Source of the DNA: an uncultured Pseudomonadota bacterium
Lineage (GTDB): Bacteria; Oederibacteriota; Muellerivitia; Muellerivitales; Muellerivitaceae
Assembly (NCBI GenBank): GCA_963770835.1
Contig: CAVYRH010000005.1
Coordinates: 256,001 to 320,000 of the forward strand
DNA: 64,000 nucleotides
Direction of reading: 5' to 3'
Position 1 is the first letter of the stretch; each line of letters begins with the position of its first letter. The translations under genes and the position numbers were made by a program. This document shows positions 32,234 to 64,000 of the stretch, one piece after another. The notes beneath the pieces were generated by a model, which ran no database searches, had not been told where the DNA came from, and worked only from the letters and a program-made list of their open reading frames with translations.

Positions 32234-32296
32234 CCCTTCATCCAAATACCGAACATCGCCTTTCCTCGCCACCCTTTGAAATTGGGGGATTCAAAG

Positions 32297-40534: not shown

Positions 40535-40538
40535 GTCC

Positions 40539-41105
40539 TTATTTTCCAGCCAAGTCTTGGACCGAGGAATCGATCTGCTCGGGAGTCACCTTGGAGTCGA
40601 ATCTCTGGACCGCCTTCCCATCCTTGCCGATTAGGAACTTTGTGAAATTCCAGCCGATGTCGGACTTGCTGCCGGTACCGGGCTGGGCCCCCTTCAGGAA
40701 TTTGTAAAGCGGGTCGGCGTTATCGCCGTTGACCTCGATCTTAGCGAAAAGCGGGAAAGTGACGCTGTACTTGGTGGAACAGAAGGTCTTGATCTCCTCC
40801 GCTGTGCCGGGCTCCTGGGCCCCGAATTGGTTGCAGGGAAAGCCCAAAATCACGAATCCCTTGTCCTTGTACTTCTCATAAAGCTTCTCCAAACCTGCGT
40901 ATTGCGGGGTAAATCCGCAATGGCTGGCCACGTTGACGATGAGAAGCGTTTTGCCCTTGTAATGGTCCAGGGTGACCGGCTTCCCGTCGATGGTGCTCTC
41001 CTTGAACTGATAAACCGTGTCTTGCGTCATGTTGTCCCCCCAAACCCAAGAATGGACCACCCCAACCGCCAAAACTGCCGCCAACGTCAAAACGAGCTTT
41101 TTCAT
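40539..41105 (-). CDS. Cys-type glutathione peroxidase with export signal
   Basis: NVASHCGFTPQY, GFPCNQFG.QEPG and WNFTKFL motifs; GGAGG RBS before MKK. Confidence 0.95.
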   Translation of the reverse strand: MKKLVLTLAAVLAVGVVHSWVWGDNMTQDTVYQFKESTIDGKPVTLDHYKGKTLLIVNVASHCGFTPQYAGLEKLYEKYKDKGFVILGFPCNQFGAQEPGTAEEIKTFCSTKYSVTFPLFAKIEVNGDNADPLYKFLKGAQPGTGSKSDIGWNFTKFLIGKDGKAVQRFDSKVTPEQIDSSVQDLAGK

Positions 41106-41175
41106 GAAGACCTCCCGATGAATTGAATATAGTCTTGAATAACGAGAGGGTGAAATCAAGGTTACAAGAACTTTT

Positions 41176-42363: not shown

Positions 42364-42607
42364 GGGCCTATCCTATGCAAAACTCCATTTGAATCCATCG
42401 AAACAAGAGGTAGGGCGTCGTGCCTTTCTTCGGTATCCTGTGTTTTCCCGGGAATTGAAAAATTTACCAAGAGAAGTATTGCAAACCCCGGAAACTAGGT
42501 GACAATGTTGCCACGCCCGCTGGTTTTGAAGAACCGAATATCCGAGGGCGGGCGAGGTTGGCCATGAGGTGCAGGGGTTTTCGGACGATTGATTCCAGGG
42601 GCCATTT

Positions 42608-49000: not shown

Positions 49001-49108
49001 GCCACCTCCGCCAAGCTTAGTCAACCCGCGGGAGTCGCCGTGGATTCCGCCGGAAACCTTTATATCGCGGACACCAGCAACAACGTGATCCGAAAGGTGC
49101 TCCATTAA
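46013..49108 (+). CDS. surface lipoprotein with Pro/Thr linkers and a C-terminal NHL beta-propeller
   Basis: lipobox LVGC; TPT repeats; repeated P.GIAVDSSGNLYIAD and GYSGDGG.AT. Confidence 0.9.
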   Translation: MKSNYKFYFSVLALMLLVGCHSANNTNAPVAPLQGTSLTINMPTDSISGSLLGAPVNTILYFITGPAMQPVQGIVGPMNTPANSGEISFTIPVPLGNSRLLAFQLNNATNQLPLAVGAVETDFTSQPSGPLVVEMGSVARNCYNISTALYNTGSYFTFETDALATSAPVSYDVNFVPVTVGSTVGFQMNASGTDSVAYMGNGNLVGFAAAPSSGYAASSGAAKQAAGASGTLLQAGDVYCVQLNGGGHAWVQIINGGSATSGPSFRFRVNTTASYYAYEQTTIDKSGNCPTALPTLTSTPTLTATVTPTFTITNSPTVTATWTPSSTPTLTDTITPTGTPTNSPTATSTKTITSTPTVTNSPTITPTPGTGPITVSGSVTYTGFNTVDTIQALWLIMVPTGGVGQQAETFVTVNGGSYTLNSTPGNYNLLAFYDYASGYNGGPLPVGDAVGYYQGAGMTLACPAPGTPPITGSVSNLNVTIGNLDCFGSPTPVITLNPTGTFTPSYTPTVSPTPSSTFTPSATNTPGGIPITVSGSVFTGGFTGGTLWAVLVPVSGGTSQVVEAITSEGAPYTLVTTAGSYNLLAFYDYGNQFYYGGGVPSGSQYNFYYSTVTPVCTPPATPFITGSVSGLALTVVGGECSANTQTPLITPVPTNTPTITPTPTTTTTPTPSATPTSTLGPGDIITVAGNGTAGFGGDSGKAVTAELSGPSGIAVDSSGNLYIADSLNNRIRKVDTNGNISTVAGNGTAGYSGDGGLATSAELLQPWGVAVDSSGNLYISDWQYNVIREVSGGIINTIAGYNQATPPSCASNWTGFQGDGGPATCGELQYSTGIALDSSGNLYIGDTNDHRIREVSGGIINTIAGGGVGSGFTDGEAATLAGMAGPYQAVVDSSSNIYISDLSTQEIYEVSSGNITLLAGTGLQGYSGDGGTATSAELDSPRGIAVDSSGNVYFADAYNQVIRKISGGIISLYAGSSTIVGSTTSGVGGYSGDGGPATSAKLSQPAGVAVDSAGNLYIADTSNNVIRKVLH

Positions 49109-49927: not shown

Positions 49928-49980
49928 TTGTCCACGGCGGGGAACCCCGCACCCCAGAGCGGGGCAGTGGCATTGGACAA
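49928..49980 (+). repeat. cassette-boundary site 1 (with 23-bp hairpin insert)
   Basis: TTGTCCA CGGCGGGGAA[CCCCGCACCCCAGAGCGGGGCAG]TGGCAT TGGACAA. Confidence 0.75.
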
Positions 49981-50008
49981 ACAAATTAACCAAATGAAGG
50001 AGGCGATT

Positions 50009-50491
50009 GTGCGGAGATCGAAATCGATAGGGAAGATCAGTTTGGCCCTGGGTCTAATTTTATTGGGCATGAATTATTTGGGCTGCTCAAGCTCTGATAA
50101 CGAAGCCGACAGCAAGGCCTACGTGGATAAAGTTGCGCCGGTCATATTCAAGGATTGGGATACGACTCTTATTTTGGCGGAAGCCGATCCGGATTTGAAG
50201 AATTACGCTGACACAAATAAAGAAGTCTTCGAGAAAGGTATCCAATCCTTCAAGGATGCGGTCGGTTCCATGAAAGCTTACAAAGGCGCAACCCTTTTGG
50301 GAAAACCCACCGAGGGACCGGACCATACAGTTGTTGCCGCTTATTCCGTTGAGGCTGATTTTGAGAAAGGGACCAGTAAGATTATGCTGACCACTACCCT
50401 CCGTGATGGGAAATGGCAGATGGGCCTTTTTAACCTAGATCCGCAGGCTGAGCTACAAAGGATGACAAAGGCCATGACCCCGAACCCCTAA
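50009..50491 (+). CDS. hypothetical lipoprotein
   Basis: AAGGAGG then GTG start, lipobox YLGC, Y..EADFEKG C-terminal strands. Confidence 0.75.
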   Translation: MRRSKSIGKISLALGLILLGMNYLGCSSSDNEADSKAYVDKVAPVIFKDWDTTLILAEADPDLKNYADTNKEVFEKGIQSFKDAVGSMKAYKGATLLGKPTEGPDHTVVAAYSVEADFEKGTSKIMLTTTLRDGKWQMGLFNLDPQAELQRMTKAMTPNP

Positions 50492-50556
50492 ACAACCGGA
50501 TGAGCCGGGAGTTTCTGCGGCCTTGCTAAACCATTAGTCTTTTGCTGACGAAAACT

Positions 50557-50585
50557 TTGTCCACGACGGGGACCCATCGTGGACA
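50557..50585 (+). repeat. cassette-boundary site 2 (last base displaced to 51386 by the intron)
   Basis: TTGTCCA CGACGGGGACCCATCG TGGACA|intron|A. Confidence 0.85.
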
Positions 50586-51385
50586 TCGTGCCAGAGGAGG
50601 GTTTGCAGAGCCAGCAGGTGAGGGAGTAGGCCGATGAGGGTCAACCCAAGTCCTGACCAGGTAATCACCAGAGAGCCTGGAAGTCAGCCCCCGGCGTAGG
50701 ATCGAGAGGTCCTGCCCGAAACGGGGTCATAAACCTCATTTAGTGAGGGAACAATCCAGCAGTCCGCAACATCAAGTGAATCCTGCCGCTTCGTGAATGG
50801 GACACCGAAAGGTGCAAGGGGATGCCGAGCCGCGTGTCTACTGGCGAAGGCCACGATCCCGCTGAAGAATCTGGTAGCAAGCGGGGCAAGTCCTCCGGAG
50901 TATGGGGAACGGAATGTTGGAAAGGCTATGCAAGCAAGCTGGGAGATCCTACCCGCCAAAAGACTTGCCGCTATAAGGCTAAAACCGAAAAGAGGCAAGG
51001 GTGGGAGGAAGTCGGAGGGGGTCACAGTACCGATGAAGGGGTGGACAACAAAACCACCCTGAGGGAAGGACCCCTGCTTCAACCATGTGTCTCAAAGAAG
51101 GTAGGCGCTGGAGCATGCCCCAAAAGGGCCAACAACTCTGTAGTACCAAAGCGCGAGGCCTTTGACAACAGGCACTATGCCGAGCGGCCAAGGGGGAAGT
51201 CGAACCTGTAAAGCCGCCGGAGGAGAGGTTGTCGGAAAGCCGTATGATCGAAAAGGTCACGTACGGTTTGACGAGGGGGCGCTGGAAACGAAGTGATGAG
51301 GGAACCTCGTTGGGGCACGGAACCGGAAACGGGGAAACAGATCAAGGAACCCTCTGCACACCATCGCGCCAGTGCTCTACTCTGC
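50586..51385 (+). mobile_element. ORF-less group II intron (IIB, bacterial class E-like), 800 nt
   Basis: domain V AAGCCGTATGATCGAAAAGGTCACGTACGGTTT (51237-51269, AGC triad, AC bulge); long DVI with bulged A 7 nt from the end; DIII; DIV closed by CAACC/GGTTG with a degenerate IEP start (KARGL*QQALCRAAK). Confidence 0.92.
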
Positions 51386-51462
51386 ACCCCGGCCCCGCAA
51401 GGGGGATTGCGAAGCTTGGCGGATGGATACACAATCGTATATACAGAAAAGGAGGTTTTCCA

Positions 51463-51696
51463 ATGAAAATTTTAATTGTCCTTCCCGATGAATTGGGGGC
51501 GGAACTAAAGCATTCCATTCCCGCGCGCCAAAGAAGCCGGTTTGTCGCGGAAGCGGTTGAAAAACAACTCCGGTCGATGAAATTCAAGAAAGTCCTTAAG
51601 AAAACAGCCGGAACATGGACGGATAAAAACCATCCTGATATGACAACCCAAGCCGGTATCAACCGCCACTTGGGCCGAATCCGGGGATGGAAATAA
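51463..51696 (+). CDS. VapB-like antitoxin (ribbon-helix-helix)
   Basis: AAGGAGG RBS; MKILIVLPDEL...RSRFVAEAV; directly upstream of a PIN toxin. Confidence 0.8.
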   Translation: MKILIVLPDELGAELKHSIPARQRSRFVAEAVEKQLRSMKFKKVLKKTAGTWTDKNHPDMTTQAGINRHLGRIRGWK

Positions 51697-51705
51697 GCCA
51701 ATCCC

Positions 51706-52095
51706 ATGGCCTACCTGATTGATTCCGACGTCATTATTTGGGCCCTTCGTGGGCGCCCGTCGATAGTGAAACTCTTATTAAACCTCTCCGAGGAAGATTC
51801 CATAGCCTGTTCAGCCATAAATGTTCTGGAGGTAGAAGTCGGAGCCAAACCCCCTGAAATGAAAGCGGTCCGCCAACATTTGGGAAGCTACGAAATACTT
51901 CCGGTTCTCCCCTCAACAGCCCAAAAAGCAGCTGAAATTCTTCGTTCGTCTTCCCGCAAACCTCACCCGGGTGAATGGGCTGACGCGGTTATCGCCGCCA
52001 CGGCCCTACTTAATGATTTAACGTTGGTCACCTTTAACACCCGTCATTACCAATACCCAGGGCTTTCACTTCATACAATGAAGGACTTAATTTAG
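51706..52095 (+). CDS. vapC: VapC-family PIN domain toxin
   Basis: YLIDSDVII, S.I...E, DAVIAATA and LVTFN.RH motifs. Confidence 0.92.
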   Translation: MAYLIDSDVIIWALRGRPSIVKLLLNLSEEDSIACSAINVLEVEVGAKPPEMKAVRQHLGSYEILPVLPSTAQKAAEILRSSSRKPHPGEWADAVIAATALLNDLTLVTFNTRHYQYPGLSLHTMKDLI

Positions 52096-52116
52096 GGTTT
52101 TTGGGCGAACGGTAGG

Positions 52117-52210
52117 TTGTCCACGACCTGTCTCCCGACCTGTCCCCCGGAACTTTAGTGCAGGGGGAAGTTCAATGAACGTAGGGAGTACGGGGACCCA
52201 TCAAGGGCCA
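52117..52210 (+). repeat. cassette-boundary site 3 (with nested 64-bp insert)
   Basis: TTGTCCA CG[insert 52126-52189]ACGGGGACCCATCA AGGGCCA. Confidence 0.8.
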
Positions 52211-52257
52211 AGAGAAAAAGCGTAAACCAATCTTCGTATAAAGGCATTAATTAAAAG

Positions 52258-52596
52258 ATGAAAAGGAAATATTCGGAATTTTTTGAGGCGAGAAATAGAT
52301 TGGGGCATCAGGTTTTTTGGATGTGGCTTTCCTTTTTCCCCCTCGTGTTTTTAATCGCGGTGTTCTCCAAATGGATCCCGGGAATTGCCGGATTACTTCT
52401 TTCCCTGTTCCTTTTTTATGTTCTTCTGACATTTGGGTTTGGTATCGCCTATTCTTTTTTAAAATGCCCGCGGTGTAAAAAAAAGTTCACTCGGTCTTTA
52501 GACATAAAATTTGAATCGGGCTTGGATTTACTGCGGATATTCAGGGGTAGGCAATGTTCTAATTGCGGGTTGATAATGCCCCGGCCCAAAAAGTGA
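52258..52596 (+). CDS. small AT-rich membrane protein with zinc ribbon
   Basis: two TM segments followed by CPRC...CSNCG. Confidence 0.7.
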   Translation: MKRKYSEFFEARNRLGHQVFWMWLSFFPLVFLIAVFSKWIPGIAGLLLSLFLFYVLLTFGFGIAYSFLKCPRCKKKFTRSLDIKFESGLDLLRIFRGRQCSNCGLIMPRPKK

Positions 52597-52608
52597 TGGA
52601 TTCAAGGG

Positions 52609-52638
52609 TTGTCCACGGCGGGGAGGCTTATTCGACAG
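52609..52638 (+). repeat. cassette-boundary site 4
   Basis: TTGTCCA CGGCGGGGAGGCTTAT TCGACAG. Confidence 0.8.
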
Positions 52639-52975
52639 GTGAAATTAAAAATAGGACCAAGCGAGGGAATGTGAGACAAAATTCTTTTAGATATTTTATT
52701 TTCTTCATTTTTTTAATGCAGGCTTTTTCTACATCCGCACAAACCTCTGTTTCCGTTGAAGATTCCATGAAAAGGTTGGCCACTGACCCGAATTTTATCG
52801 ATATTACCAACTTCAAAGGCGTCACGATCGACCTCAAATACTCCACAACGGATAACTTTACCGGAACCAACCTGTATGGGAATTTTAAAATAGCTTATCT
52901 TCATAAAATTGCCGCCGGGAAATTAAAAAAAGCAATTGATCTGCTTCAAGCCAGCCACCCCGGTTATCAATTTAT

Positions 52976-54267
52976 GGGCACCTCTAAAAATTCTGTTTGA
53001 AGGCTTTACGGTCACCTCAAACCAGTTTGCAACCCTCAACCAAAGGAGTTCGTGGAAATTTTTGGCCCGGAATCTCCCTTCGGCTACTCCCAGAACCTTT
53101 CCTTAGCCCCCAAAGTCTTTAAAATCTATGCGTTCACTGCCTCCGGACGCATTCGTCCCATTAAGTACGTAAATCGCTGCATGTTGTAAGCCAGGTTCCG
53201 CATTCCTATCTTCATCCGGGCCCTCACCTTGCCCACCACCCTCAACCAGTTTCCACCCATCGCCGTTTCCATGTGCCCGAACACATGCTCGACTCTCGCC
53301 CGAACCTTGGACCGCATCTTGTTCAACTTTTCCTGGAACTCCGTCATGGGATGATTCCGATTCGACTTGTAATGAATCTGGTTGTTATATCGCCTGCGCT
53401 TCAAGGTCTTGTTCTTCTTCTGTGACCGGTATGCGCTGTCTGCCCACACCTTCTTGCGGTTCTCCACGTCCAACAACTCCTCGAAAACCTCCCGGTCGGG
53501 TACCGAAGCCGCCGTCACCTCAAACTTCCGGACCAGCTTGTGTTTCTTATCCACGTTGATATGGTTCTTGTACCCGTAGTGATTCACGCCGTTTTTTTGC
53601 ACCCATCTCGCATCCACGTCTTTTTGCCTCATCTTATCGGTATCCCCCTTCCACTCCTGAGGTGTTTCCCCCTTCTTGATCTGGCCGTTTTCGTCTTTGG
53701 TGTTCCTCTGCCGGGGCACTTCCACTATCGAAGCATCGATGATCTGCCCTTCCTGGGCCTTCAGCCCGACCCGATCCAGGTGCCGGTTGAATTTCCCGAA
53801 CAACTGGTCAATCCAGCCGCCTTGGGCCAGCTTGTTGCGGTATAACCAGATGGTCTTGGCATCCGGCACATCCTTATCCATACCCAGCCCCAAAAACCTC
53901 ATGAAACTCAGCCGGTCCTGGATATGGAATTGTGTCCTTTCGTCCGCCAGGTTGTATAGGGCCTGTAAAACTAGCACCTTGAACATTAGTACTTCATCGT
54001 ACGGGGTACGCCCCGCCTCGCTTTTGCGTTCCTTATCGCGTAATGCCTTGCGCAACATACTGCGGAAATCCTCCCAGGGCACTACTCGGTTCAAGGCTTC
54101 CAGCGGGTCCCCCATTTCATCCAGGGATTTCAAGCGGTCTTGAAGGTCGAAGAATCCGGTTTGGCCCATTGCGGCACCTCGTTCAAGGATTTTTCAGCGT
54201 TTTCACGCGCTGTTTTCTCCTTGTACCTCCTTCACTTCGTCTCTACAACCAATTTTTAGACGTGCCC
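52976..54267 (-). mobile_element. complete IS5-family insertion sequence, 1292 bp
   Basis: 17-bp IRs GGGCAC(C/G)TCTAAAAATT and 4-bp target duplication TTAT. Confidence 0.96.
53126..54169 (-). CDS. IS5 family DDE transposase
   Basis: DRLSFMRFLG, IIDAS, YGYKNH, WADSAY and RARVEHVFG motifs. Confidence 0.96.
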   Translation of the reverse strand: MGQTGFFDLQDRLKSLDEMGDPLEALNRVVPWEDFRSMLRKALRDKERKSEAGRTPYDEVLMFKVLVLQALYNLADERTQFHIQDRLSFMRFLGLGMDKDVPDAKTIWLYRNKLAQGGWIDQLFGKFNRHLDRVGLKAQEGQIIDASIVEVPRQRNTKDENGQIKKGETPQEWKGDTDKMRQKDVDARWVQKNGVNHYGYKNHINVDKKHKLVRKFEVTAASVPDREVFEELLDVENRKKVWADSAYRSQKKNKTLKRRRYNNQIHYKSNRNHPMTEFQEKLNKMRSKVRARVEHVFGHMETAMGGNWLRVVGKVRARMKIGMRNLAYNMQRFTYLMGRMRPEAVNA

Positions 54268-54721
54268 TTATCGTTTTTGATGCTTTGCGGCCCCGCTCCG
54301 TTCAATGGGAGCTATGGAATCGCGTTAAAGGCACGGCCCAGCAAAAGTTTGTGGCGACCCCCCAAATGGGCTCAAACCATAATTATGGTCTCGCCGTGGA
54401 TATCGGTCTTTTAGATGAGAATGGAAAATTGCTTGATATGGGCGCGCCCTTTGACGGTTTTACCCCTCTTTCAGAACCCCAACTGGAAAGTAAGTTTTTG
54501 AAAGAGGGGAAATTGACCCCAAAACAGGTGGGTAACCGGCTCATTCTTCGTCGGGCAATGGAAGGCGCCGGATTTATACAATTGCCCCATGAATGGTGGC
54601 ATTATGATGCCTTGAAATCGAAAGACATCCGCGGAAAAATGGAAATTGTGGAATAAAGTTATGTTTTGACTTTGAATAAACCGAAGGCCCATTTTAATCA
54701 AACCTTATGGAGCCGTGACCA

Positions 54722-56365
54722 TTGCCCCAAACTCCAGCCTTATCGGAAACCAAGACCGTTGAAAGGGTTGGGATTCAGCCGTTCCACCGCCTTTACTTTA
54801 AAGCCGCCGCAACCTGTTTCCAAATAAAACGGTCCATCGAAAACAAAAATAATTCCCGAAAACTATTTTCGAAAGGAAATGGGCCCGATTTCCCGTTCTT
54901 ATTGGCTGAATCAAGGTCTTCGATTTTCAGCGACCGGCTCCAAGAACGCCCGTTTGAAAACGGCAAACTTGAAAATCTTAGGATCGCCACTCAAGCCCTG
55001 GACAAACTTGTCGTGGATAAAGGCGCTGAGTTCAGCTTCTGGAATCAAATTGGCAAACCCACTGCAAGCCGCGGCTTCCAGGTGGGACGGGAAATCCGTT
55101 GGGGATGTATGATTCCAGGAGTGGGCGGTGGACTTTGCCAACTATCCGGCGCTCTTTTTGATTGCGCCTTACAAATTGAATCGCAGATCACCGAGGTTCA
55201 CTCCCATACCCGCCGCTTGCCAAATGTCATTTACCGGCCCGAGATGGACGCGACTGTATTTTGGAATTACGTTGATTTATGTTTTAGGCCCCATTTTGAT
55301 ATTCTCATTGAACCCGTTTTTTCCGAGGAATCCTTCATCTTGCGATTTTGGGGGAAATCGCCCCGGACGCCCCACCCCGATAAAACTCCAGGCATCGAAA
55401 AAGCTTTGGCGCATGACTGCCTGGATTGCGGTATCGAGGATTGCCATTATCATGAAAAAACTCAAATCGCCCTGAATTACAAAAACCTTATTTTCAGCCC
55501 CAGCCTTGGACCGCTATCTTTAGTTCAAAGGCTGAAATCCCGTTTTTTATCAATCGCCGCCAGAATTCTTAACCGTGTTTTGAGTTCCCTTTCTTTACCG
55601 GTTGGGAAAATCGCGATCTTTCGTAACCAAGCTTTAGCGTTTTTAGTTAAAACTGTTTATCCCTTCCAAAGATCAACGGCATTAATTTCCCAGGATTTAG
55701 CCCCTTTCCTTAAAAAGTGGCTTCAAAAAGGGAACGTCCCTTATGTCCTTAAGTTGGAACATTTACCGATGAGGGAACTTCAAAACCGGCTCGACATTCT
55801 AGCGGCGCTACATCCCGACGACTTAAGACTTCGGGACTACCGTGTTTCTGAATCTATTAATGAGCATGAGATGGATTGCATTAAAATCGCAAAATCATTA
55901 TTTACCGACCATCCCTATTTAAAAGAACTGTTCCCGGAGGCTGAGTTGAAGATGGATTTGCCGGCCCCCCCGGCCCCGGGTTTTCGAAAGAGCCCGGCGA
56001 AGATGATCCTTTTTCCCGGTCCCTGTTACGCCCGGGAGGGAACCCAGGAGGTGCTACACGCTGCCGGACGGTTGAATCTGGAAGTGCTATGTCCCCATTT
56101 CTCAGCCAAAGGGAAGCCCTTCTTAAAATATGTCGAAAAGGCGGAGATTCCCTGGGAAAAAGTTTTAGTTTACGTCCATCCTTGCGTGTTTGACCGCCCC
56201 AACGAGGTCCTCCTGCAAGTGGTACACCATGGAATTAGGATTGTTGGAACCCTCGGCATTCCTTATCGTGGGGTACTTTTCAGCCAGTGCGCCTTGGGGG
56301 ACGCGATGGATTTGGAGGATAAGCTTCGGCAAATCATAGACTTGAAAGGGGGTTCGTATGTTTAG
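54722..56365 (+). CDS. VanW-domain protein with a degenerate glycosyltransferase-like C-terminus
   Basis: FSFW..IG.PT...GF, GGGLCQLS and DATVFWNYVDL motifs; start uncertain. Confidence 0.8.
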   Translation: MPQTPALSETKTVERVGIQPFHRLYFKAAATCFQIKRSIENKNNSRKLFSKGNGPDFPFLLAESRSSIFSDRLQERPFENGKLENLRIATQALDKLVVDKGAEFSFWNQIGKPTASRGFQVGREIRWGCMIPGVGGGLCQLSGALFDCALQIESQITEVHSHTRRLPNVIYRPEMDATVFWNYVDLCFRPHFDILIEPVFSEESFILRFWGKSPRTPHPDKTPGIEKALAHDCLDCGIEDCHYHEKTQIALNYKNLIFSPSLGPLSLVQRLKSRFLSIAARILNRVLSSLSLPVGKIAIFRNQALAFLVKTVYPFQRSTALISQDLAPFLKKWLQKGNVPYVLKLEHLPMRELQNRLDILAALHPDDLRLRDYRVSESINEHEMDCIKIAKSLFTDHPYLKELFPEAELKMDLPAPPAPGFRKSPAKMILFPGPCYAREGTQEVLHAAGRLNLEVLCPHFSAKGKPFLKYVEKAEIPWEKVLVYVHPCVFDRPNEVLLQVVHHGIRIVGTLGIPYRGVLFSQCALGDAMDLEDKLRQIIDLKGGSYV

Positions 56366-57764
56366 AAATGTAATCCTTTGTATCGTGGGGTTTTTAACCC
56401 TTGCAGGAATCACAATGGGGAGGGCTGCCGCGGACCCCGTCCGGGTAATGGCCTTGAGCGCCACCAGTTCCAAGGACGCCCATTTTGACCTTGCGAGCCT
56501 TTTGGATTCCAGCGCCACCACCGGTTGGCAACCCGGCCTTTCCGGCAGCGGCGCAGAGGAGGGTGTCCTCCTCGAGTTTGAAAAACCCGTCAAGGTGGAT
56601 GAGATCCAGCTTTCCGGCACCGATACCTTCAAAGTTTCTTTGAACGGCCGTGAAAATGACAAGATGGGGAATGAATTCAAAATGAAAATCCCCGTGGAAC
56701 TCAAATCCCTTTTCATCCATGTGGCATCCCGCCCCAAGGGGCCAAGCGAATTGAAGGGGTTTAAGCTCCTGCGCAATGGCAACCCCATCGAACTCCAAAA
56801 GCCCTTGATTGTCCGGGGGGAAGTGACAGCCCAGAATGTCCTCGAACCCTTCATCGCCTACGGCCCTTTCCGGCTTTTCGACTCGAAAATCGATATGGCT
56901 TTCGCGATGGACGGGAACAAGATCAACCCTTCGGCGCCGATCCCGCTTTTCGACCTGACCTTTCCAAAATCCCTCCGGCTGAAAGGGTTTTATATCTGGA
57001 ACGGCTATCAGCGGTCGAATCAACACTACTATTCCAACGCCCGCCCGGAAGTTCTCACTGTGGCAAGCGGCGGCCAAAAAGCCCAATTCCCCCTGAAGGA
57101 CGACATGGGGGCCCAGTGGGTGGCCTTTCCGGGAAACGGATGGGATGCTTCCTCACTGCATTTCACGGCCGACAAGGTTTATCCAGGCACCACCTACAAG
57201 GACCTTGTGGTATCGGAGATTTCCTTCGTCACGGAAGACGGCCAAACCCTGCTGGTGGACGCGCAAAAACCGGTGGCGACGGTTTCAAAGGAAATGACGG
57301 GCCTTCTCGACCAATCTTTCAAGTCCTATCCCGACGACGAATACCATTTTGACATTAAGTTTCGAAGCGACGGCACTTTCGCCGCATTCCAGCACAAAAT
57401 CTCGCAGGCCAATACGGACCGCTGCATCTACGAGGGCAATTGGGAAATGAAGGACGCAAGTCATTTGAGGGTATTCGGGCGTTATTACGAGACCTCCCGG
57501 GAGCTGCAGGCCGCCTACGGCGTGGGCACTTCCACCGAGCAATCGGGTATTTTCCAGACTCAGATCCAGGTCACCTCCTTGGACCGCCTCACGCCATCCC
57601 AGAAGAAGGAAATCTACGATTTTGAGAAGGACCGGGCGACCCTACCGGATTTTCCACAAGATGAAGAAACCTTCTGGAAGGCGGCAAAAGAAAAGGGGGG
57701 GATGTTTTTTATCAAATCCAACCTGTTCTCACAGATTATGGTTGCCGATAATATTGAAAAATAG
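56358..57764 (+). CDS. exported protein with discoidin/glycan-binding-like domains
   Basis: signal peptide; LLD....TGW..G, IWNGYQRS...Y.SN.R and VYPG..Y.D..VSEI motifs. Confidence 0.65.
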   Translation: MFRNVILCIVGFLTLAGITMGRAAADPVRVMALSATSSKDAHFDLASLLDSSATTGWQPGLSGSGAEEGVLLEFEKPVKVDEIQLSGTDTFKVSLNGRENDKMGNEFKMKIPVELKSLFIHVASRPKGPSELKGFKLLRNGNPIELQKPLIVRGEVTAQNVLEPFIAYGPFRLFDSKIDMAFAMDGNKINPSAPIPLFDLTFPKSLRLKGFYIWNGYQRSNQHYYSNARPEVLTVASGGQKAQFPLKDDMGAQWVAFPGNGWDASSLHFTADKVYPGTTYKDLVVSEISFVTEDGQTLLVDAQKPVATVSKEMTGLLDQSFKSYPDDEYHFDIKFRSDGTFAAFQHKISQANTDRCIYEGNWEMKDASHLRVFGRYYETSRELQAAYGVGTSTEQSGIFQTQIQVTSLDRLTPSQKKEIYDFEKDRATLPDFPQDEETFWKAAKEKGGMFFIKSNLFSQIMVADNIEK

Positions 57765-59013
57765 CCGCCTCTTCCACGGCCTCCCGGCCGTCCTGACGGT
57801 TTTGGTCTTCGGGGCTTGGCTTTTTTCCCGGGCCTATCTGCCTGGTTCGGACGGCTATTACTTTCTCGACCAGGCTGTCGGAATCCTGAACTCGGGCTCG
57901 TTGCGCATCAAAAACCACGACCCGACGCCCTATTTCATCGCGGGACTCATCCGCCTGGGGATCCAGCCCGAACTCAGCGTAAAACTTCTTTTCCTGGCCG
58001 CAACCGGAATGTGGTTTTGGCTGGGCCGCAAGGCTGAAACGGCCCTTTTCTACCTGTTGGCTCCGCTTTTCCTCTTCCACTTGATCCAATTTCCAAAGCT
58101 GACCCTCGCCTTGCTCCTGGCGATCCAGGCTTTCCAATCCCTAGGATGGGGTTCCCGCATTACATGGCTTTCGGGGGCAACCCTCTTCCATCCCATCGGA
58201 TTGGCATCCTGGGCGCTGGCGAAGCTGAGGGATGTGAAACCCTGGGCGCCATGGATCGGTTCGGCGGCATTAGCCGCGGGGTTTGTGGTTTTCGGGTGGT
58301 TCCTCCGGAGCCAGTCCTTTTCCCTCACGCCCGTAGGCGTCAAGTTTTTGGTCAACCCCCATTTGCCCATCCTATTCCGTATTTGTTGCGGGCTTTGGAT
58401 GGGGCGAATGCTTTTCGCCCCACGCCAAGGCTGGCTGGTCCTGGGCCTGCTGGCGCCCAGTTCTTCCGGGGAGTTGTTCGGCAGCCTGGAACGGTGGGAC
58501 TTGGCACTGATACTTTTCTCGCCCTGGCTGCTTTCCCGGGAAAAATGGAACTTTTTTTGGGCCCCCCTGGCCCCCGTTGCAGCCGGATGGATGCTCCTGC
58601 CGATGCCCGTTTACGACTACTCAGTGCTGGACCAGGTGATCGACCTTTCCAAAAACTTGGACATGAAGATGTTGGTGGTGGACCAGACGGGCAAGTTCTA
58701 CTTCACGGCTAAAACCGGCATCGATGCTTATTTTTTCGAACCCGAAGACGGCTGGCCCAAGGAAACCACCTGGAGGCTGGCGCGGAATGTCTCCTCCGGG
58801 GAGCTCTTGCCCTACCTGGAGGGGCCCTGCGCTCCGGGTTCCAAAACCTGGTTTACCCTCAGGCCCGGGACCCTTTTGATACGGGAGGATTGCTGGGAGG
58901 AAATCAGGTCGAAGATCCTTCCAGGCGAGAACGAGGATCTTTACGGCAGGATATGGGACAATCAGTCCAATCCGTCCCACAAACGGCCACCGTTTTTGGA
59001 TATCCGTCATTAG
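57754..59013 (+). CDS. polytopic membrane protein (GT-C-like, unproven)
   Basis: PGSDGYY after TM1, many TM segments; start uncertain. Confidence 0.6.
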   Translation: MKNSRLFHGLPAVLTVLVFGAWLFSRAYLPGSDGYYFLDQAVGILNSGSLRIKNHDPTPYFIAGLIRLGIQPELSVKLLFLAATGMWFWLGRKAETALFYLLAPLFLFHLIQFPKLTLALLLAIQAFQSLGWGSRITWLSGATLFHPIGLASWALAKLRDVKPWAPWIGSAALAAGFVVFGWFLRSQSFSLTPVGVKFLVNPHLPILFRICCGLWMGRMLFAPRQGWLVLGLLAPSSSGELFGSLERWDLALILFSPWLLSREKWNFFWAPLAPVAAGWMLLPMPVYDYSVLDQVIDLSKNLDMKMLVVDQTGKFYFTAKTGIDAYFFEPEDGWPKETTWRLARNVSSGELLPYLEGPCAPGSKTWFTLRPGTLLIREDCWEEIRSKILPGENEDLYGRIWDNQSNPSHKRPPFLDIRH

Positions 59014-59026
59014 GCTACTGGGAAAA

Positions 59027-59056
59027 ATGTCCACGACGGAGACCCCAAGTGGGCAC
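59027..59056 (+). repeat. cassette-boundary site 5
   Basis: ATGTCCA CGACGGAGACCCCAAG TGGGCAC. Confidence 0.8.
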
Positions 59057-59236
59057 CCTGAACGTGGAATCCCCGGCCCGATTGTTTGGGTAAAAGATAT
59101 CCCTCCCCTCAAGACCTGCCCCCATCACCGGTTTCCATCAAATAAATTCCCAACCTCTTTTGGACGGCGCTCCTGGGGGGTAAACTGGATGGGTGCCGCG
59201 GGCCTGAAAGCCCGCGTTTTCCGGAAAAGGTGAAGC

Positions 59237-61093
59237 TTGGCTTACCGCCCCTCTCATTTATTTTTCCGCCGAACGGCCCCGACTTTTTTTCTGGTTTGGG
59301 GCCTGGGCGTTTCCTGGGCCCAAACCCCGCCTGCGGGATACAGCCTTTTTTGGAGCGATGAATTCAACGGCGCCGTGGGCAGCGCGCCCAACGGGGCCAA
59401 TTGGACCTATGACACCGGTGACGGCGGCTGGGGCAACGCCGAGCTGGAAAATTACACGACCAGCCTCCAGAACTCCCAGATCATCGCGGACCCCAACGCC
59501 ACCGACGGAAAATCGCTGGCCATCATCGCCCTGGATACCGATCCCGGAAGCACGGCATACGGCACGGTGGGCCGGTACACCTCCGCCCGGCTTTTAACGA
59601 ACGCGGCGGGTTTTCAGGGCGTGACCTTCCAATACGGCTACATGGAAGCCCGCATCCAGATGCCCTATGGCGACGGCATTTGGCCGGCCTTTTGGATGCT
59701 GGGGACCAGCATCAATACGGGCACGGCCTGGCCCAATTGCGGCGAAACCGACATCATGGAAAATATCGGCAAAGCCTCGGACCAGCCCATCAACCACGGT
59801 TCGCTGCACGCGCCCAATTGGAACCCCACCGGCACCTACACCCTTCCGGGCGGGGCGCTTTACCACAACGCCTACCACACCTTCGGCGTGCTTTGGCAGC
59901 CGAACCAAATCGACTTTTACGTGGACGGGACGGATTACGAGACCCAGACCTTGGCCGGCGCCACGGCGGCCGGGGGCACCTGGGAATTCAACACCACCAT
60001 GTTCTTCCTGCTGAACATGGCGGTGGGCGGGAATTACCCAGGAAGCCCCGACGCCAGCACTTCCTTTCCGCAAACCATGCTGGTGGATTACGTGCGGGTC
60101 TACGAGCCCAACACCCCCACCGCGACGCCCAGCGCCTCGCCCACTTCCACGCCTTCCGGGACGCCCACGCCCAGTTCCACCCGGACCGCCACATCCAGCC
60201 CCACTTCCAGCCCTACGGCCACCGCATCGAGGACGGCTTCTTTCACTCCGACGGGCACGGCAACGGCTACGGCGTCCCCGACGGCCACGGCTATCCCCAG
60301 TGAAACTCCTTCCGCGAGCCCCACGGCGACCCGGACGAATACGACGGTCAACAGCCCCACAAATTCGGCCACTGCATCCCCAATAGCTTCGATGACCCCG
60401 TCCGCCACCAAAACGGCGACCGTTACGCCGTCCCTCACCGCTTCGCCGACGCCAACCGCCACACCCAGCGCGACCCCGGCCAATAGTTTGACGAACAGCC
60501 CGACTTTCACTCCAACCTCTTCGGCCACCACATCCCCAACCCCGACGGCTTCGAAGACCCCGACCGCCACCAAAACGGCCACCGTTACGCCGTCCCTCAC
60601 CGCTTCGCCGACGCCAACCGCCACCGGCACCCCCAGCGCGACCCCGGCCAACAGCTTGACGAACAGCCCGACCTTCACTCCGACCCCCTCGGCCACCGGC
60701 ATTCCCACCGCTTCGAACACGGTAACCCCAACGGGGACTTTTACCCCGACACCCAGCCTCACGATCACTTCCACACCGGCCCTTTCCCCCACCTCTTCGC
60801 CCGCCGGGGTGGTAATAGGGCTGCCTTATCCCAACCCCGTGATGGGCTCGGGGCCGGTGACCGTCCAGGTCCAAGCGCCCGCCGGTTCCACCATCGAATG
60901 GAGCGTCTTTACGGCGGCTTTCCGGAAAATAGTGGACGCCTCCCAGCCCGTCCCGGGGGACCACTTCGCCCTGGTTTGGGACCTGGAAGACCAATGGCGC
61001 AAACCCGTGGCCAGCGGTCTTTATTACCTCAGGGTCCAAGTGACCGGCCCGGCCAAGGCCTCCAAAGTCCTGAAGGTCCTGGTCCTCCGTTAG
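59237..61093 (+). CDS. GH16 glycoside hydrolase with Pro/Thr linker and FlgD-Ig-like C-terminal sorting domain
   Basis: WSDEFNG, WPAFWMLG, catalytic ETDIME, VDYVRVY; PYPNP...WD......VASGLYYL. Confidence 0.92.
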   Translation: MAYRPSHLFFRRTAPTFFLVWGLGVSWAQTPPAGYSLFWSDEFNGAVGSAPNGANWTYDTGDGGWGNAELENYTTSLQNSQIIADPNATDGKSLAIIALDTDPGSTAYGTVGRYTSARLLTNAAGFQGVTFQYGYMEARIQMPYGDGIWPAFWMLGTSINTGTAWPNCGETDIMENIGKASDQPINHGSLHAPNWNPTGTYTLPGGALYHNAYHTFGVLWQPNQIDFYVDGTDYETQTLAGATAAGGTWEFNTTMFFLLNMAVGGNYPGSPDASTSFPQTMLVDYVRVYEPNTPTATPSASPTSTPSGTPTPSSTRTATSSPTSSPTATASRTASFTPTGTATATASPTATAIPSETPSASPTATRTNTTVNSPTNSATASPIASMTPSATKTATVTPSLTASPTPTATPSATPANSLTNSPTFTPTSSATTSPTPTASKTPTATKTATVTPSLTASPTPTATGTPSATPANSLTNSPTFTPTPSATGIPTASNTVTPTGTFTPTPSLTITSTPALSPTSSPAGVVIGLPYPNPVMGSGPVTVQVQAPAGSTIEWSVFTAAFRKIVDASQPVPGDHFALVWDLEDQWRKPVASGLYYLRVQVTGPAKASKVLKVLVLR

Positions 61094-61129
61094 AGCGGGT
61101 TCCGCGGAATTGAAAATGGATTTAATATC

Positions 61130-61159
61130 TTGTCCACGGCGGGGACCCGAATTGGACAA
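61130..61159 (+). repeat. cassette-boundary site 6 (perfect consensus)
   Basis: TTGTCCA CGGCGGGGACCCGAAT TGGACAA. Confidence 0.88.
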
Positions 61160-61272
61160 TGAAACAAGGTAATAAGCGAATAAATGAACATCACTTTTTT
61201 AACGGTGAATTGGATAATTAGCCAATTTGGAATACAATCTGAACAAGCAAATGTACGCAAAGGGGATCGATC

Positions 61273-61506
61273 ATGAATCTCGCCGTCAAAGTACCTGTGG
61301 ACCTTGAAAATCTCATCCAACAGCTTTCCGTGAAAGACAAAATCAAGCTGGCCCACGAGCTCGAAAGGCAGACCCGGCGTGAACGTTGGACCCCCCTTCT
61401 CAACCGCATCCAAAAAAGGACCGCAAAGAACCGTTTGAGCGAGAAGGAAATAGTGGCTTTGGTCAAGGAAACCCGCAGGGAATTACGTGGCAAGAGCCGT
61501 CATTGA
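61273..61506 (+). CDS. putative antitoxin
   Basis: small helical ORF overlapping the PIN toxin; SEKEI...VKE.R motif. Confidence 0.75.
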   Translation: MNLAVKVPVDLENLIQQLSVKDKIKLAHELERQTRRERWTPLLNRIQKRTAKNRLSEKEIVALVKETRRELRGKSRH

Positions 61507-61879
61507 CACCAATATATTAATCAGCATTCTTCTTGGAAGCCGAAATTGTCTCGCCGTTCGAGGGGCTTTCTTGGATGGACTTTTCGAGATAATCACCTCA
61601 CCCGAACTCGTCACCGAGTTTAATGTCGCCTGCCGGAAACCCAAAATCTCAGCATTCGTCAATCCCCATGACATCTTGAATACCCTTGAGCTTCTTAATA
61701 GTGATGCTGAATGGATTTCCCCCGATATCAAAGTTGCCGCCAGCCGCGACTCCAAAGACAATCCTGTTTTGGAATGCGCTGTCGCCGGTCAGGCCGACTT
61801 TATTATTACAGGCGACAAGGATTTGCTTGACCTCAAGTCTTTCCGTGGAATTAAAATTATCACCCCCCGACAATTTTGA
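61487..61879 (+). CDS. PIN-family toxin (PIN_3 type)
   Basis: VIDTNILIS, RDSKDN.VLECA, IITGDKDLL and ITP..F motifs. Confidence 0.92.
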   Translation: MARAVIDTNILISILLGSRNCLAVRGAFLDGLFEIITSPELVTEFNVACRKPKISAFVNPHDILNTLELLNSDAEWISPDIKVAASRDSKDNPVLECAVAGQADFIITGDKDLLDLKSFRGIKIITPRQF

Positions 61880-61906
61880 TGGTTTTAAAAAGGGATTAAC
61901 TCTGGG

Positions 61907-62022
61907 CTGTCCACGACCTGTCTCCCGACCTGTCCCCCGAAACTTTAGTGCAGGGGAAGTTCAATGAACGTAGGGAGTACGGGGACCCGTTCGACAAGCT
62001 CATGGCAGGCCTCGTCGGACAG
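61907..62022 (+). repeat. cassette-boundary site 7 (nested 63-bp insert plus 23-bp insert)
   Basis: CTGTCCA CG[61916-61978]ACGGGGACCC[61989-62011]TCGT CGGACAG. Confidence 0.8.
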
Positions 62023-62248
62023 CCCATTTCGAAGAATGAAGATGTTTTTAAACTCCGCAACTTGGCTGGGGAAGGCCATCCCAGATCCTGGCTTCTGAAG
62101 AAATCCCCTGAATAAATAAGCTTTTTTCAACTAATGGGTGAATTTTGGGATTAAACCGGGGGTTCCCCGTCTAGAGGTTGGCGAATATAACGCTGATCCT
62201 GTATCTATCAAAACCTATTGGTTTATCAAGTTTTCGAAGGGGGAGAAT

Positions 62249-62971
62249 ATGGTGAGGAAACCTATTTGGGGGTTGATGATCTCTTGCGTGGCCTTGACCG
62301 GGGTAATTCTAACGGGCTGTATCAAAAAAATCAGCAGTCCTACCGCGCCCCAACCTCCCGCAACCGCCACGGTTGCTTTCACTTCAACCACTACCGCTTC
62401 CAACCAAACGCCCACCGCCACGCCAACGCTCACGGTGTTCAACACCTTTACGCCGACCCCTTGCGTGACGAATACGCCCACGACCGATCCGGGAACCAGC
62501 ACTCCCTCAGCCACGCCGACGCCTTGCGTCACCAACACGCCTGTGGCGACGAACACCTTTACGCCCACGCCCTGCGTCACCGACACGCCTGTTTCGACGA
62601 ACAGTTTCACCCCAACGAACACCACCTCGATCCAGACTCCCACGGCCACGCCGACCCCTTGCGTCACCGATACGCCCGTGGCGACGAAAACCTCCACCCC
62701 GACCTTAACACCCAACGCAACCAATACTCCCACCCACACTGCCACCAACACACCGTCCTCGACCCCCACGGTTACGGGAACTTGGTACACCTCAACCCCC
62801 ACGAATAGTCCCACACCCCGGTTCACGGCCACTCTTTGCATACCCTGCTCTTGGACCCCGTCCGGAACCATCACGCCGGCGGCGACGAATACGCCGACGG
62901 GTTCCTATACCCCCACCAATACCCCCACCCCAACGGGAACCTGGTTTACTCCAACCCCCACTCCGACTTGA
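62249..62971 (+). CDS. Thr/Pro-rich lipoprotein
   Basis: GGGGGAG RBS, lipobox LTGC, TPTPCVT(N/D)TP four times. Confidence 0.85.
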
Positions 62972-62994
62972 TTCGCCATCGAATCCGTTTTGCC

Positions 62995-63030
62995 AAGCCC
63001 CACCCGGGGGTTCCCGGATGGGGCTTTTTT
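62995..63030 (+). terminator. rho-independent terminator
   Basis: AAGCCCCACCCGGG..CCCGGATGGGGCTT stem followed by a T-tract. Confidence 0.8.
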
Positions 63031-63034
63031 ATTT

Positions 63035-63217
63035 CGGAACTATGCACTAGACGTACTTTGCAGTAAAAACCCTCGCCCCTTGGGGGAGAGGGTAGGGTGA
63101 GGGGTGTCATTAGTCGTCAAATTCACCCTCATCCCAGCCTTCTCCCCTCAAGGGAGAAGGTGAAAATAGCAGCCAACAGGTTTTGCTTGTAAATGGTACG
63201 CCAAGTGCATAGTTCCG
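63035..63217. mobile_element. 183-bp MITE, IS1595-family-like ends
   Basis: 22-bp IR CGGAACTATGCACTWGRCGTAC, 8-bp target duplication TTTTATTT, no ORF. Confidence 0.88.
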
Positions 63218-63235
63218 TTTTATTTCATGTCAAAA

Positions 63236-63265
63236 TCGTCAATGGTGGGGACCCGCCATGGTCAA
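63236..63265 (+). repeat. cassette-boundary site 8 (divergent, last in array)
   Basis: TCGTCAA TGGTGGGGACCCGCCA TGGTCAA. Confidence 0.6.
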
Positions 63266-63355: not shown

Positions 63356-64000
63356 ATGCGCTACTGGCTCTTCGCCCTCTTTGTCATGATTAGCCGCTTC
63401 GCTTCCTCCCAGGAAACCGCCACCCCCACTCCCGCACCCAGTTCGAGCCCTACCCCGGGTTTCTACCAGATGAATGAAGTGGTCGTTTACGGGCAACAAT
63501 TGGGAAATAAAATTCTGGAAGGGCCGGACCTGGAAACCTTGGAAGCCGACGGACGCCTGGGGGATCTGCTGGGGGAACTGCCCTCCCTCGAATCCCAGGG
63601 CCTGGGCGGGGCCAAAAGTTTCAGCAACCCCTCGGTGCGGGGAGGGGATACGAACCAGACCGTGATTCTCCTGAACGGGCAAAGGGTGAACCAGGGTTTC
63701 GACCTGGGCACCCTGCCCACCGACGACATTCAAAGCATCGAGCTCATCAAGGGGCCGGGCGCGCTGGCCTATGCCCCCGATGCCACGGGCGGGGTCTTGA
63801 ACATCGTCACGCAAAACGGGGAATCCAAGGGGTTGCTGGGCGCCTCCACCGGCGACTTTGGCACCTACCAATTGCGCGCCGCCACCGGCACCTGGAAAGC
63901 CGGGCCCTGGAAAGCCGGGCCCTGGAAAGCCGGGCCCTGGGAAGCTTCCCTGGGGGGCAACTGGGACCAAACGAACGGCTATGCCGTCAACACCGACCAG
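63356..64000 (+). CDS. TonB-dependent receptor, N-terminal part (runs off window)
   Basis: hand translation: signal peptide, TonB box NEVVVYG, plug motifs SVRGG....TVILLNG and IELIKGP...YAP.ATGGVLNIVT. Confidence 0.9.
   Translation, partial: MRYWLFALFVMISRFASSQETATPTPAPSSSPTPGFYQMNEVVVYGQQLGNKILEGPDLETLEADGRLGDLLGELPSLESQGLGGAKSFSNPSVRGGDTNQTVILLNGQRVNQGFDLGTLPTDDIQSIELIKGPGALAYAPDATGGVLNIVTQNGESKGLLGASTGDFGTYQLRAATGTWKAGPWKAGPWKAGPWEASLGGNWDQTNGYAVNTDQ

Follow-up and report, generated by a model that had tools for sequence, protein, structure and literature searches.

The window, a stretch of 64,000 nucleotides from the genome of an uncultured soil bacterium (G000, 96% complete), contains an array of gene cassettes delimited by copies of a short palindromic motif. 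All eight copies listed in an earlier note on this DNA are present on the plus strand with GA at their centre (8/8). The perfect 7-bp arms around 16 bp (7+16+7) that the note saw in each copy were over-regularised; the unit is a 28-mer with 13-bp arms (13-GA-13). Sites 2 (50558..50585), 4 (52610..52637), 5 (59028..59055) and 6 (61131..61158) are intact and contiguous, site 2 with one mismatch to the consensus, site 4 with a variant right arm and site 5 with an A at position 13. Sites 1, 3 and 7 are seen only after the removal of inserts. Site 1 (49929..49979), the first of the array, holds a hairpin insert of about 23 bp in its right arm, site 3 (52118..52208) a 63-bp MITE-like insert after position 10 (four copies in the genome, every one in a site), and site 7 (61908..62021) two inserts of 62 bp and about 22 bp. 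The supposed regularity does not extend to the right arm of site 3, which is decayed, nor to site 8 (63237..63264), which has eight mismatches to the consensus and scores under the PWM cut-off, its GA centre being retained. The compensatory C/G pair noted at site 7 is present but not significant, since complementary bases at -1/+29 occur in 229 of 490 pooled sites versus 224 in shuffles.

The cassette genes lie on the plus strand. Cassette 1 encodes a predicted lipoprotein (49994..50491), cassette 3 a small membrane protein with CxxC pairs (52258..52596) and cassette 7 a Pro/Thr-rich lipoprotein (62249..62971), all without a Pfam family. Much of the cargo proposed earlier is confirmed by Pfam: an antitoxin and PIN toxin of VapBC type in cassette 2 (51466..52095), ddpX (Peptidase_M15) and VanW in cassette 4, a GH16 protein with a Pro/Thr-rich tail in cassette 5 (59237..61093), and an antitoxin and PIN_3 toxin in cassette 6 (61273..61879). 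Cassette 4 (52671..59013; 6,418 bp from site to site) also encodes a lipoprotein-like protein and a membrane protein, and its ddpX is split by an IS5-type transposase gene on the minus strand (53126-54169; Pfam) that had been missed. Cassette 8 starts with a TonB-dependent receptor (565 aa; 63356..64000), whose end lies outside the window before a ninth site at C5:321316. An ORF-less group II intron, "intron B" (50588..51387, plus strand; Rfam RF02003 at 50642-50774, RF00029 at 51235-51385), is inserted 2 bp 3' of site 2; the genome holds 17 intron B 5' ends, and an 800-bp skip in metagenome run X1 represents an intron-free allele. The distances from stop codon to site (72, 65, 21, 12, 13, 36, 27 and 264 bp) and the differing base composition of the units (interval GC 0.43 to 0.63) agree with the earlier description.

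The 28-bp site family

About 112 copies of the palindrome occur in the source genome, in 33 clusters; the PWM scan that the earlier note had proposed finds 89 sites, versus 0 in a mononucleotide shuffle. Site orientation matches the strand of the local genes in 108 of 112 cases, and four of 112 sites lie within long ORFs. The median distance from site to site is 1.2 kb, and the units in between, at about 33 loci, span 0.3-9 kb and total about 147 kb of DNA. No tRNA gene was found within 2 kb of any site, and the 33 clusters stand in varied contexts. Sites are clustered between variable genes and not at conserved promoters, contrary to what an operator or REP would produce, which the note had named as the finding that would count against it. 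Within the class FCPU426 the motif is present in 31 of 32 genomes, and it was found in none of 15 genomes from the rest of the phylum.

Counted from the centre, conservation is highest at 1-3 and 8-13 bp and lowest at 4-7, and none is seen past about 2 bp outside the 28-mer. This profile fits recombinase-domain contacts at 9-11 without the zone at 16-24 to which the zinc ribbon binds, as given in the available text of PMC3783163. GA is 97% conserved, not above positions 12-13 (97-98%), and the 27 of 531 sites with a non-GA centre are not clearly more decayed (p=0.07). No covariation between arms was found in the pooled sites, whose counts exclude viral contigs, with seven single matches to the spaced pattern there. 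Apparently "inverted" sites with TC or GC centres were rejected as such: read in the usual GA orientation, each is a normal site whose left arm is variant or that carries one mutation.

Cassette movement and the place of exchange

Identical cassettes occur again beside different neighbours; one of 863 bp has four exact copies in four clusters with several different neighbours. From the window, cassette 2 is also site-bounded on contig C12 and in the relatives G021 and G041 (85-86% DNA identity), cassette 6 lies between two sites in G020 (79% over 743 of 749 bp), and stretches homologous to cassette 5 were found in arrays of G020, G043 and G021. The breakpoints expected in relatives by the earlier note are present: cassette homology ends at the sites, with the exchange located within positions 12-15.

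This interval follows from the linkage of site variants to their flanks. The right-arm variant is common to 211 of 328 comparisons sharing the downstream flank versus 17 of 223 sharing the upstream flank, and left-arm variants are only weakly linked to the upstream flank (18 of 79), the pairs in both sets not being independent. Variants at position 11 go with the upstream flank and those at 16-17 with the downstream flank. Because no informative variants at positions 12-13 were found in the genome comparison, a cut at GA and a cut after position 11 are not separable by that comparison alone. One contig of run X1 (depth 2, with a short side of 30 letters, in one of four runs) joins position 15 of site 4, as left partner, to position 16 of site 5, as right partner, and lacks the 6,418-bp cassette; this excision-type joint suggests GA as the crossover point. 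Taken together, the comparisons show that inter-site units move as blocks with exchange at positions 12-15, and we infer that crossover takes place exactly at GA and not elsewhere in this interval.

A candidate serine recombinase and rival explanations

The earlier note had stated that the window encodes no recombinase and had proposed a serine recombinase acting from elsewhere. In agreement with both, the candidate, a protein of 275 aa with PF00239 and PF07508, is encoded outside the window on contig C17 (G000:C17:12078-12905), in trans to the window array. It is not a resolvase of Tn3/gamma-delta type, with whose crossover site the note had compared the motif, but a naturally truncated large serine recombinase (LSR). 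The single PF00239 match in G000 carries the PF07508 recombinase domain and not a resolvase HTH, and members of its clade combine the catalytic and recombinase domains (PF00239, PF07508) in what a fold search identifies as an LSR fold.

The short clade comprises 19 proteins, set apart as a monophyletic group by a branch of SH-aLRT 99, and all 19 end at 275-283 aa. Their dN/dS, from the 7 of 10 pairs that are non-saturated, is 0.08-0.16 (about 0.1), and the catalytic motifs R16, S18, D87, R88 and R91, whose roles we assume by resolvase numbering, are invariant. In view of uniform length, monophyly and dN/dS, an accidentally truncated LSR was rejected. An integrase completed by a tail on circularisation was likewise rejected: in intact copies the reading frame stops before it reaches the site, and neither a C-terminal half nor a separate zinc ribbon was found in G000 (PF13408 is missing from G000, G020 and G043). 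That PLE integrase would be without a zinc ribbon proved wrong according to the available part of PMC6002521.

The short clade is always site-adjacent. For all genome copies whose 3' end is present (11 of 11), and for one metagenome contig, this end lies at most 40 bp from a site and in the same geometry; the control value is 4 of 3,086 ORFs, and none of the full-length relatives has its gene end near a site. The nearest of these relatives (49-59% identity) read on into a tRNA gene, tRNA-Gln or tRNA-Ser, and among the 150 matches listed in a library search at 50% identity most are full-length LSRs. The recombinase gene is located within a site-bounded unit or at the 3' end of an array, which it faces. 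Intact genes adjoin ArdC, RadC, TA or other mobile genes, and 5'-eroded remnants lie at array ends in G021, G043 and G046. No copy was found in 24 of 31 site-bearing genomes, including G002, G012 and G014 (96-99% complete). A tyrosine integrase beside the site at C26:881437 was dismissed as an enzyme lead, being one of six phage-type paralogues of which the others are not site-adjacent. The short serine recombinase is likely the enzyme of the 28-bp site.

We consider it quite probable from these sequence patterns that the palindrome is where a serine recombinase of naturally minimal size (275-283 aa) acts, serving the arrays in trans, and the earlier note's reading of a cassette system driven in this way is supported. 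A recombinase dimer would bind each site and cut on both sides of GA, after which half-sites would be swapped. With an enzyme that has no coiled coil, any site could pair with any other; any inter-site interval might then be released in circular form and integrate again at any other site, in an orientation set by GA. The recombinase would travel as part of a separate unit, bounded by sites and shared with ArdC, RadC and a TA pair, from which it would serve many enzyme-less arrays in trans. Array stability may come from TA cassettes, the rarity of the enzyme and site decay via introns, IS and MITEs, and the chromosome may also be rearranged when arrays recombine with each other. According to the accessible text of PMC5499577, LI integrase turns promiscuous on deletion of its coiled coil, in favour of the model, but is then poor at intermolecular recombination, which counts against it. 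If true, the model also requires an unregulated enzyme to spare the chromosome between arrays. To a still broader picture we give somewhat better than even chances: a decentralised integron analogue, in which a serine recombinase without zinc ribbon and coiled coil, carried as a cassette, cofactor-free and bidirectional on a symmetric 28-bp site, would move genes among dozens of chromosomal arrays class-wide and occasionally recombine arrays (as in the leuA/leuB versus HI0933/recN swap).

Three other explanations have to be weighed against this model. The only Xer of the lineage could use the site as a target of dif type (11-6-11), with the arrays as chromosomal pdif-type modules and the serine recombinase as a passenger. 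The 28 bp of the site are compatible with 11-6-11. Of 25 relatives from the two families that have the site, 24 carry a single Xer-like protein (54-83% identity), and Xer is also there in the absence of the serine enzyme; families outside these have no site and show only matches of about 30%, usually two. Chromosomal dif-module arrays are moreover known in Acinetobacter (PMC12907356, as far as its available text goes). This reading was dropped after a dif-like motif had been found beside xer, and we hold it to be improbable. The xer gene lies at a gene-strand switch and has its own AT-rich motif of this kind just downstream, conserved at every locus (15 of 15), and the best resemblance to the cassette site within 1.5 kb of the gene still shows at least 10 mismatches. 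The centres brought together at cassette ends are unlike at 16-17, as opposed to homology in a 6-bp overlap, and the adjacency of the serine clade (12/12) is left without account. About equally improbable is an attachment site of a small integrative element of the short recombinase, where arrays would be stacked integrations with eroded remains and single genes would not be reshuffled. The mobile genes beside intact recombinase genes and the remnants at array ends would suit such an element, and SCC composites arise by successive integration (PMC13739063, in the part available). The short median spacing, the single-gene and TA units found repeatedly, with ends exactly at sites, in several different arrays and genera, and the dispersal of the 863-bp cassette among differing neighbours speak against it, as do genes that start or end tens of bases from intact sites, which erosion would not be expected to leave.

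Least probable is a palindrome that serves as a terminator, as a repeat of REP type or as a target for other mobile elements (group II introns, IS110, MITEs), with cassettes moved by homologous recombination at the repeats or at inserted elements. The site is indeed targeted by group II introns of two families, by an IS110-like element and by small inserts, near-perfect copies fold as a hairpin, and the genome has 11 Y1 transposase genes. However, the points of insertion are 11|12, +2, the outer edge and the 3' side of position 10, most sites are free of inserts, and IS110 was rejected as the driver for inserting at the outer edge of either arm and not at the centre. Arm covariation is missing, a T-run stands 3' of only 55 of 524 sites, and REP/RAYT features are scarce: GTAG stands 5' of 10 of 524 sites, and one of the 11 Y1 genes (C12:25206) is inside an array, as cargo. 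The sites are single, co-oriented and found only at cassette boundaries, and site 4 does not fold and is nevertheless a partner in the joint.

Should the serine recombinase model be true, it would represent an independent invention of cassette capture with a fixed symmetric site, such capture having so far come from tyrosine recombinases (integrons, pdif modules). The system would escape attC scanners and LSR screens limited to 400-650 aa, the candidate filter of PMC10083194, by which the short clade would be dropped. The clade would provide a natural test of zinc-ribbon and coiled-coil roles, and a 275-aa recombinase with a 28-bp site and orientation by two bases is a possible compact tool. 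The DNA between the sites forms a defined store of unstudied accessory genes.

Comparison with known systems

The site presumably resembles site I of Tn3/gamma-delta resolvase in its 13-2-13 geometry around a central dinucleotide; unlike res, it has no accessory sites, and the enzyme has no resolvase HTH. attC sites of integrons are also parasitised by group II introns and IS, as is the case here, and the cassettes are co-oriented, mobile and site-bounded as integron cassettes are. With integrons and CALINs, as described in the available part of PMC4889954, the system shares co-oriented rows of mostly one-gene, site-bounded cassettes with TA pairs, and many enzyme-less arrays; it differs in its fixed 28-bp site, the lack of R boxes and arm covariation, and a serine enzyme that faces the array. 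IntI was not found in the genome (96% complete), the best of 12 matches to TIGR02249 reaching 44.6 bits versus a cut-off of 265. R''/R' box pairs occur at 7 of 524 sites versus 4 of 2,000 at random, no shared head gene or attI-like platform was seen in the arrays viewed, and a promoter scan remains at background level (12 vs 8 +/- 3).

The pdif/dif modules of Acinetobacter (XerCD) likewise have 28-bp sites bounding gene modules in arrays, on chromosomes too, in the text available of PMC12907356; here, by contrast, the sites repeat in direct orientation and have a symmetric core, they do not resemble the dif-like motif of the host, and there is no XerC/XerD pair. Phage-type large serine integrases (LI/A118, phiC31, Bxb1) have the same catalytic and recombinase domains and the same fold, but the present system lacks an attP/attB pair, a zinc ribbon and a coiled coil, and its site is half as long, judging from the portions available of PMC3783163 and PMC5499577. 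SCC and composite islands also combine a serine recombinase, half-sites around a central GA, tandem units and enzyme-less units served in trans, as is proposed for the arrays here; in the accessible part of PMC13739063 they are large, use one insertion gene (rlmH) and have full-length recombinases, unlike the near-perfect palindrome and 275-aa enzyme found here. CcrB is the best NCBIfam match of the candidate, at 70 bits versus a cut-off of 900, and CcrAB/CcrC models give 70, 57 and 26 bits versus cut-offs of 900, 700 and 900. The literature searched holds no prior description of the system, which in its working resembles an integron or an SCC composite island and is neither.

The site and the movement of the intervals between copies

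In the window, which spans positions 256001-320000 of contig C5 in the source genome (G000), the motif was found on the + strand at all eight positions for which the earlier note had claimed it, but only sites 2, 4, 5 and 6 are contiguous 28-mers; inserts interrupt sites 1, 3 and 7, and site 8 is degenerate. Its consensus, TGTCCACGACGGG-GA-CCCGTCGTGGACA, is perfectly palindromic save for the central GA. The genome scan proposed earlier, run with a weight matrix trained on 51 clean copies, returned 89 sites in G000 versus none in a mononucleotide shuffle. Including 23 interrupted or degenerate copies added by hand, this genome holds 112 sites in 33 clusters, of which 13 are singletons and the largest has 17 members. 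Neighbouring sites are spaced at a median of 1,245 bp (79 intervals, 147 kb in total), and the intervals have a median GC content of 0.48 versus 0.545 genome-wide. Only four of the 112 sites lie within ORFs of at least 200 aa, although such ORFs make up 74% of the genome. Site orientation is that of the local majority gene strand in 108 cases, and because gene strand bias is strong in G000 we read this as a probable orientation with the leading strand. Mirrored outer arm positions covary no better than shuffles, the only excesses, at 12/17 and 13/16, being small, and single-stranded site 4 shows no tendency to fold (z +1.2); both observations favour recognition of duplex DNA.

One 863-bp cassette occurs in four G000 clusters with 100% identity and several different neighbours, and two further cassettes are common to contigs C15 and C17. 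Window cassette 2, minus its intron, has an 85-86% match to a site-bounded cassette on C12, in G021 and in G041, and window cassette 6 matches a unit lying between sites in G020 over 743 of its 749 bp. We regard it as almost certain that the cassette system is real.

Flank linkage was assessed over a pool of 638 distinct sites, taken from G000 and every fetched locus and including a few chance matches in unrelated genomes. The upstream flank alone is common to 68 pairs and the downstream flank alone to 85. Sites with the same downstream flank agree in their right-arm variant in 211 of 328 comparisons, those with the same upstream flank in 17 of 223. For left-arm variants, where the link is much weaker, the corresponding counts are 7 of 92 and 18 of 79; pairs are not independent in either set. 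A position-11 variant goes with the upstream flank and variants at positions 16-17 with the downstream flank, which places the exchange within positions 12-15. The exchange at the GA postulated earlier agrees with this interval but is not narrowed further by it, no pair being informative for positions 12-13.

Array joints were sought in Logan contigs of four soil runs (two studies) aligned to the window array. One inter-site joint leads from position 15 of site 4 to position 16 of site 5 and skips 6,418 bp, which is precisely how far apart the two sites lie; it is carried by a single contig of depth 2, with a short side of 30 letters, in run X1 only, which may be the source sample of the genome. 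Since sites 4 and 5 differ at positions 13 and 16-17, the placement of this joint fits a cut at the GA. The circle junctions also proposed earlier did not appear in the Logan contigs of the four runs.

A candidate enzyme and the Xer alternative

G000 encodes 12 tyrosine recombinases, none of them an integron integrase, and one serine recombinase (C17:12078-12905), a 275-aa protein with PF00239 and PF07508 but without PF13408, whose gene ends 14 bp from an opposite-strand site. A protein search yielded 19 clusters, 275-283 aa long and with 68-100% identity, followed by a gap down to other relatives at 53-59%; in a quick, midpoint-rooted tree of 120 rows, a branch with SH-aLRT 99 separates the 19 short proteins from the rest. 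Their catalytic motifs are invariant, and dN/dS is 0.08-0.16 in seven of ten pairs from five intact genes, the other three being saturated at synonymous sites. The predicted structure of the G000 enzyme (pLDDT 80.6) best matches serine integrases, and its modelled recombinase domain overlays LI integrase at 2.3 A.

Among 32 class genomes the short clade is intact in five (G000, G004, G020, G024, G043), and two others (G021, G046) retain no more than remnants of it. The expectation that a recombinase gene adjoins other site copies was borne out: all 11 genome copies keeping their 3' end, and the copy on metagenome contig L088, end at most 40 bp from a site and converge on its right arm, with stop-to-site gaps of 8-36 bp (the stop is lost in the G046 pseudogene). 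As a control, 4 of 3,086 G000 ORFs show such stop-near-site geometry. No site adjoins the full-length relatives examined, three of four checked reading into tRNA genes; the nearest full-length serine integrases (L025, L027, L031) read into tRNA-Gln or tRNA-Ser genes. Site-pattern matches have a median of 90 in short-clade carriers versus 7 in the other 25 genomes, counts in which palindromes are scored twice and which assembly quality and kinship confound. In G000 the recombinase gene comes first in a site-bounded unit of 7 kb that also carries ArdC, RadC and a TA pair. ArdC adjoins the short recombinase in G043 and G020 as well, and in G004 the gene forms the end of an array, with core genes next. 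We consider the short serine recombinase the probable enzyme, shuffling the cassettes in trans.

An alternative is that the lineage's single Xer-like protein acts on the cassette sites. This protein at first looked the best candidate, being common to the two site-bearing families (24 of 25 relatives, 54-83%), in which no XerC/XerD pair was found. However, a conserved AT-rich dif-like motif lies just downstream of this lineage-specific 354-aa gene in 15 of 15 loci (C11:157250-157285, locus L023; L043-L057), and nothing near xer resembles the cassette site with fewer than 10 mismatches. The xer gene coincides with the gene-strand switch of C11, and position and geometry suggest that the motif is dif-like; gene and motif are possibly a further single-Xer system. 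We retain Xer as an improbable alternative because it would account for the 24 genomes that lack the serine recombinase gene.

The short serine recombinase also suits the dimensions of the site. In LI integrase, bases 9-11 from the centre are read by the recombinase domain and bases 16-24 by the zinc ribbon (excerpts of PMC3783163). A serine recombinase lacking the ribbon would be expected to require arms of about 13 bp. Counting from the centre, site conservation is high at 1-3 and 8-13 bp, drops at 4-7 and stops about 2 bp beyond the 28-mer; searches of G000, G020 and G043 gave no zinc-ribbon partner. LI integrase minus its coiled coil recombined site pairs indiscriminately, and weakly between molecules (excerpts of PMC5499577). 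Extrapolating from these contacts and this behaviour, exchange by the short enzyme would be symmetric and bidirectional among all sites, with the GA orienting exchange between them.

Parasites and REARRANGEMENT

A group II intron with an RT follows site position 11 in 10 of 12 copies, and the 17 copies of a second, ORF-less family all lie 2 bp downstream of a right arm or of a sequence resembling one; one of the 17 is in the window (50588-51387). The two families are often stacked, and several ORF-less copies contain an IS110. In the array of L305 (G043:C26), one cassette is duplicated in inverted orientation on the two sides of an intron copy. An IS110-like element, its family judged from sequence, is inserted at the outer margin of one arm or the other in four of five copies (C3:45328, C3:81921, C3:103117, C8:165072), and a 62-63-bp MITE-like insert occurs only after position 10 (window 52128-52190 and 61918-61979; C11:105393, C11:115078). 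An IS5-type transposase splits ddpX (window 53126-54169); its contig depth is raised in each of the four runs, which is compatible with several copies. The hairpin repeat at window 63065-63165, with copies on C3, C4 and C8, is a separate dispersed repeat, very deep in the runs and with many loose ends.

In most relatives leuB stands directly after leuA, or one or two genes on; a gene of the HI0933 family is head to head with recN in G015 and G023. G000 has swapped these partners reciprocally: C5 carries the HI0933 gene, the window array and leuB (window 41176-42363; C5:323205), and C11 carries leuA, an array and recN (C11:89512-117656), with an array at both new junctions. The swap is compatible with site-specific exchange as well as with homologous recombination between copies of an intron or IS.

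A cassette in which cas1 is followed by a small gene occurs in three G000 arrays (L329:7215-8587; C16:36044-37416; C3:47239-48611), and no CRISPR array was seen with it. A three-integrase (RIT-like) element lies at C10:6765-10013, and there are six paralogous phage-type tyrosine integrases on C5, C10, C1, C2 and C26. Just upstream of site 1, a 2,752-aa Gly-rich autotransporter-like ORF accompanies a FecR/outer-membrane/NHL cluster (window 32276-49108), for which no bounding site was detected.

Distribution and likeness to known systems

With one mismatch, the 18-base site pattern occurs in 21 of 24 same-family genomes, in the one sister-family genome and in none of the 15 genomes representing the phylum's other families; with two, it matches 31 of 32 class genomes, the source genome counted. 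Among the matches listed in a species-wide scan, the 80 loci with clustered or repeated matches are named as candidate division FCPU426 or 'uncultured', and other named taxa gave single loci only.

In mostly open-access literature, judged largely from abstracts, we found no description of serine-recombinase cassette arrays, of so short an LSR clade or of FCPU426 site repeats; one systematic LSR study, as excerpted, retained 400-650 aa candidates alone at one selection step (PMC10083194). The defining tests of pdif modules, resolvase/res systems and REP elements all failed for this system. Defining tests of SCC elements failed too, although the excerpted account of these gives them a chemistry and a GA centre in common with the array (PMC13739063). 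Defining integron tests likewise failed here, but the system works like an integron/CALIN network.
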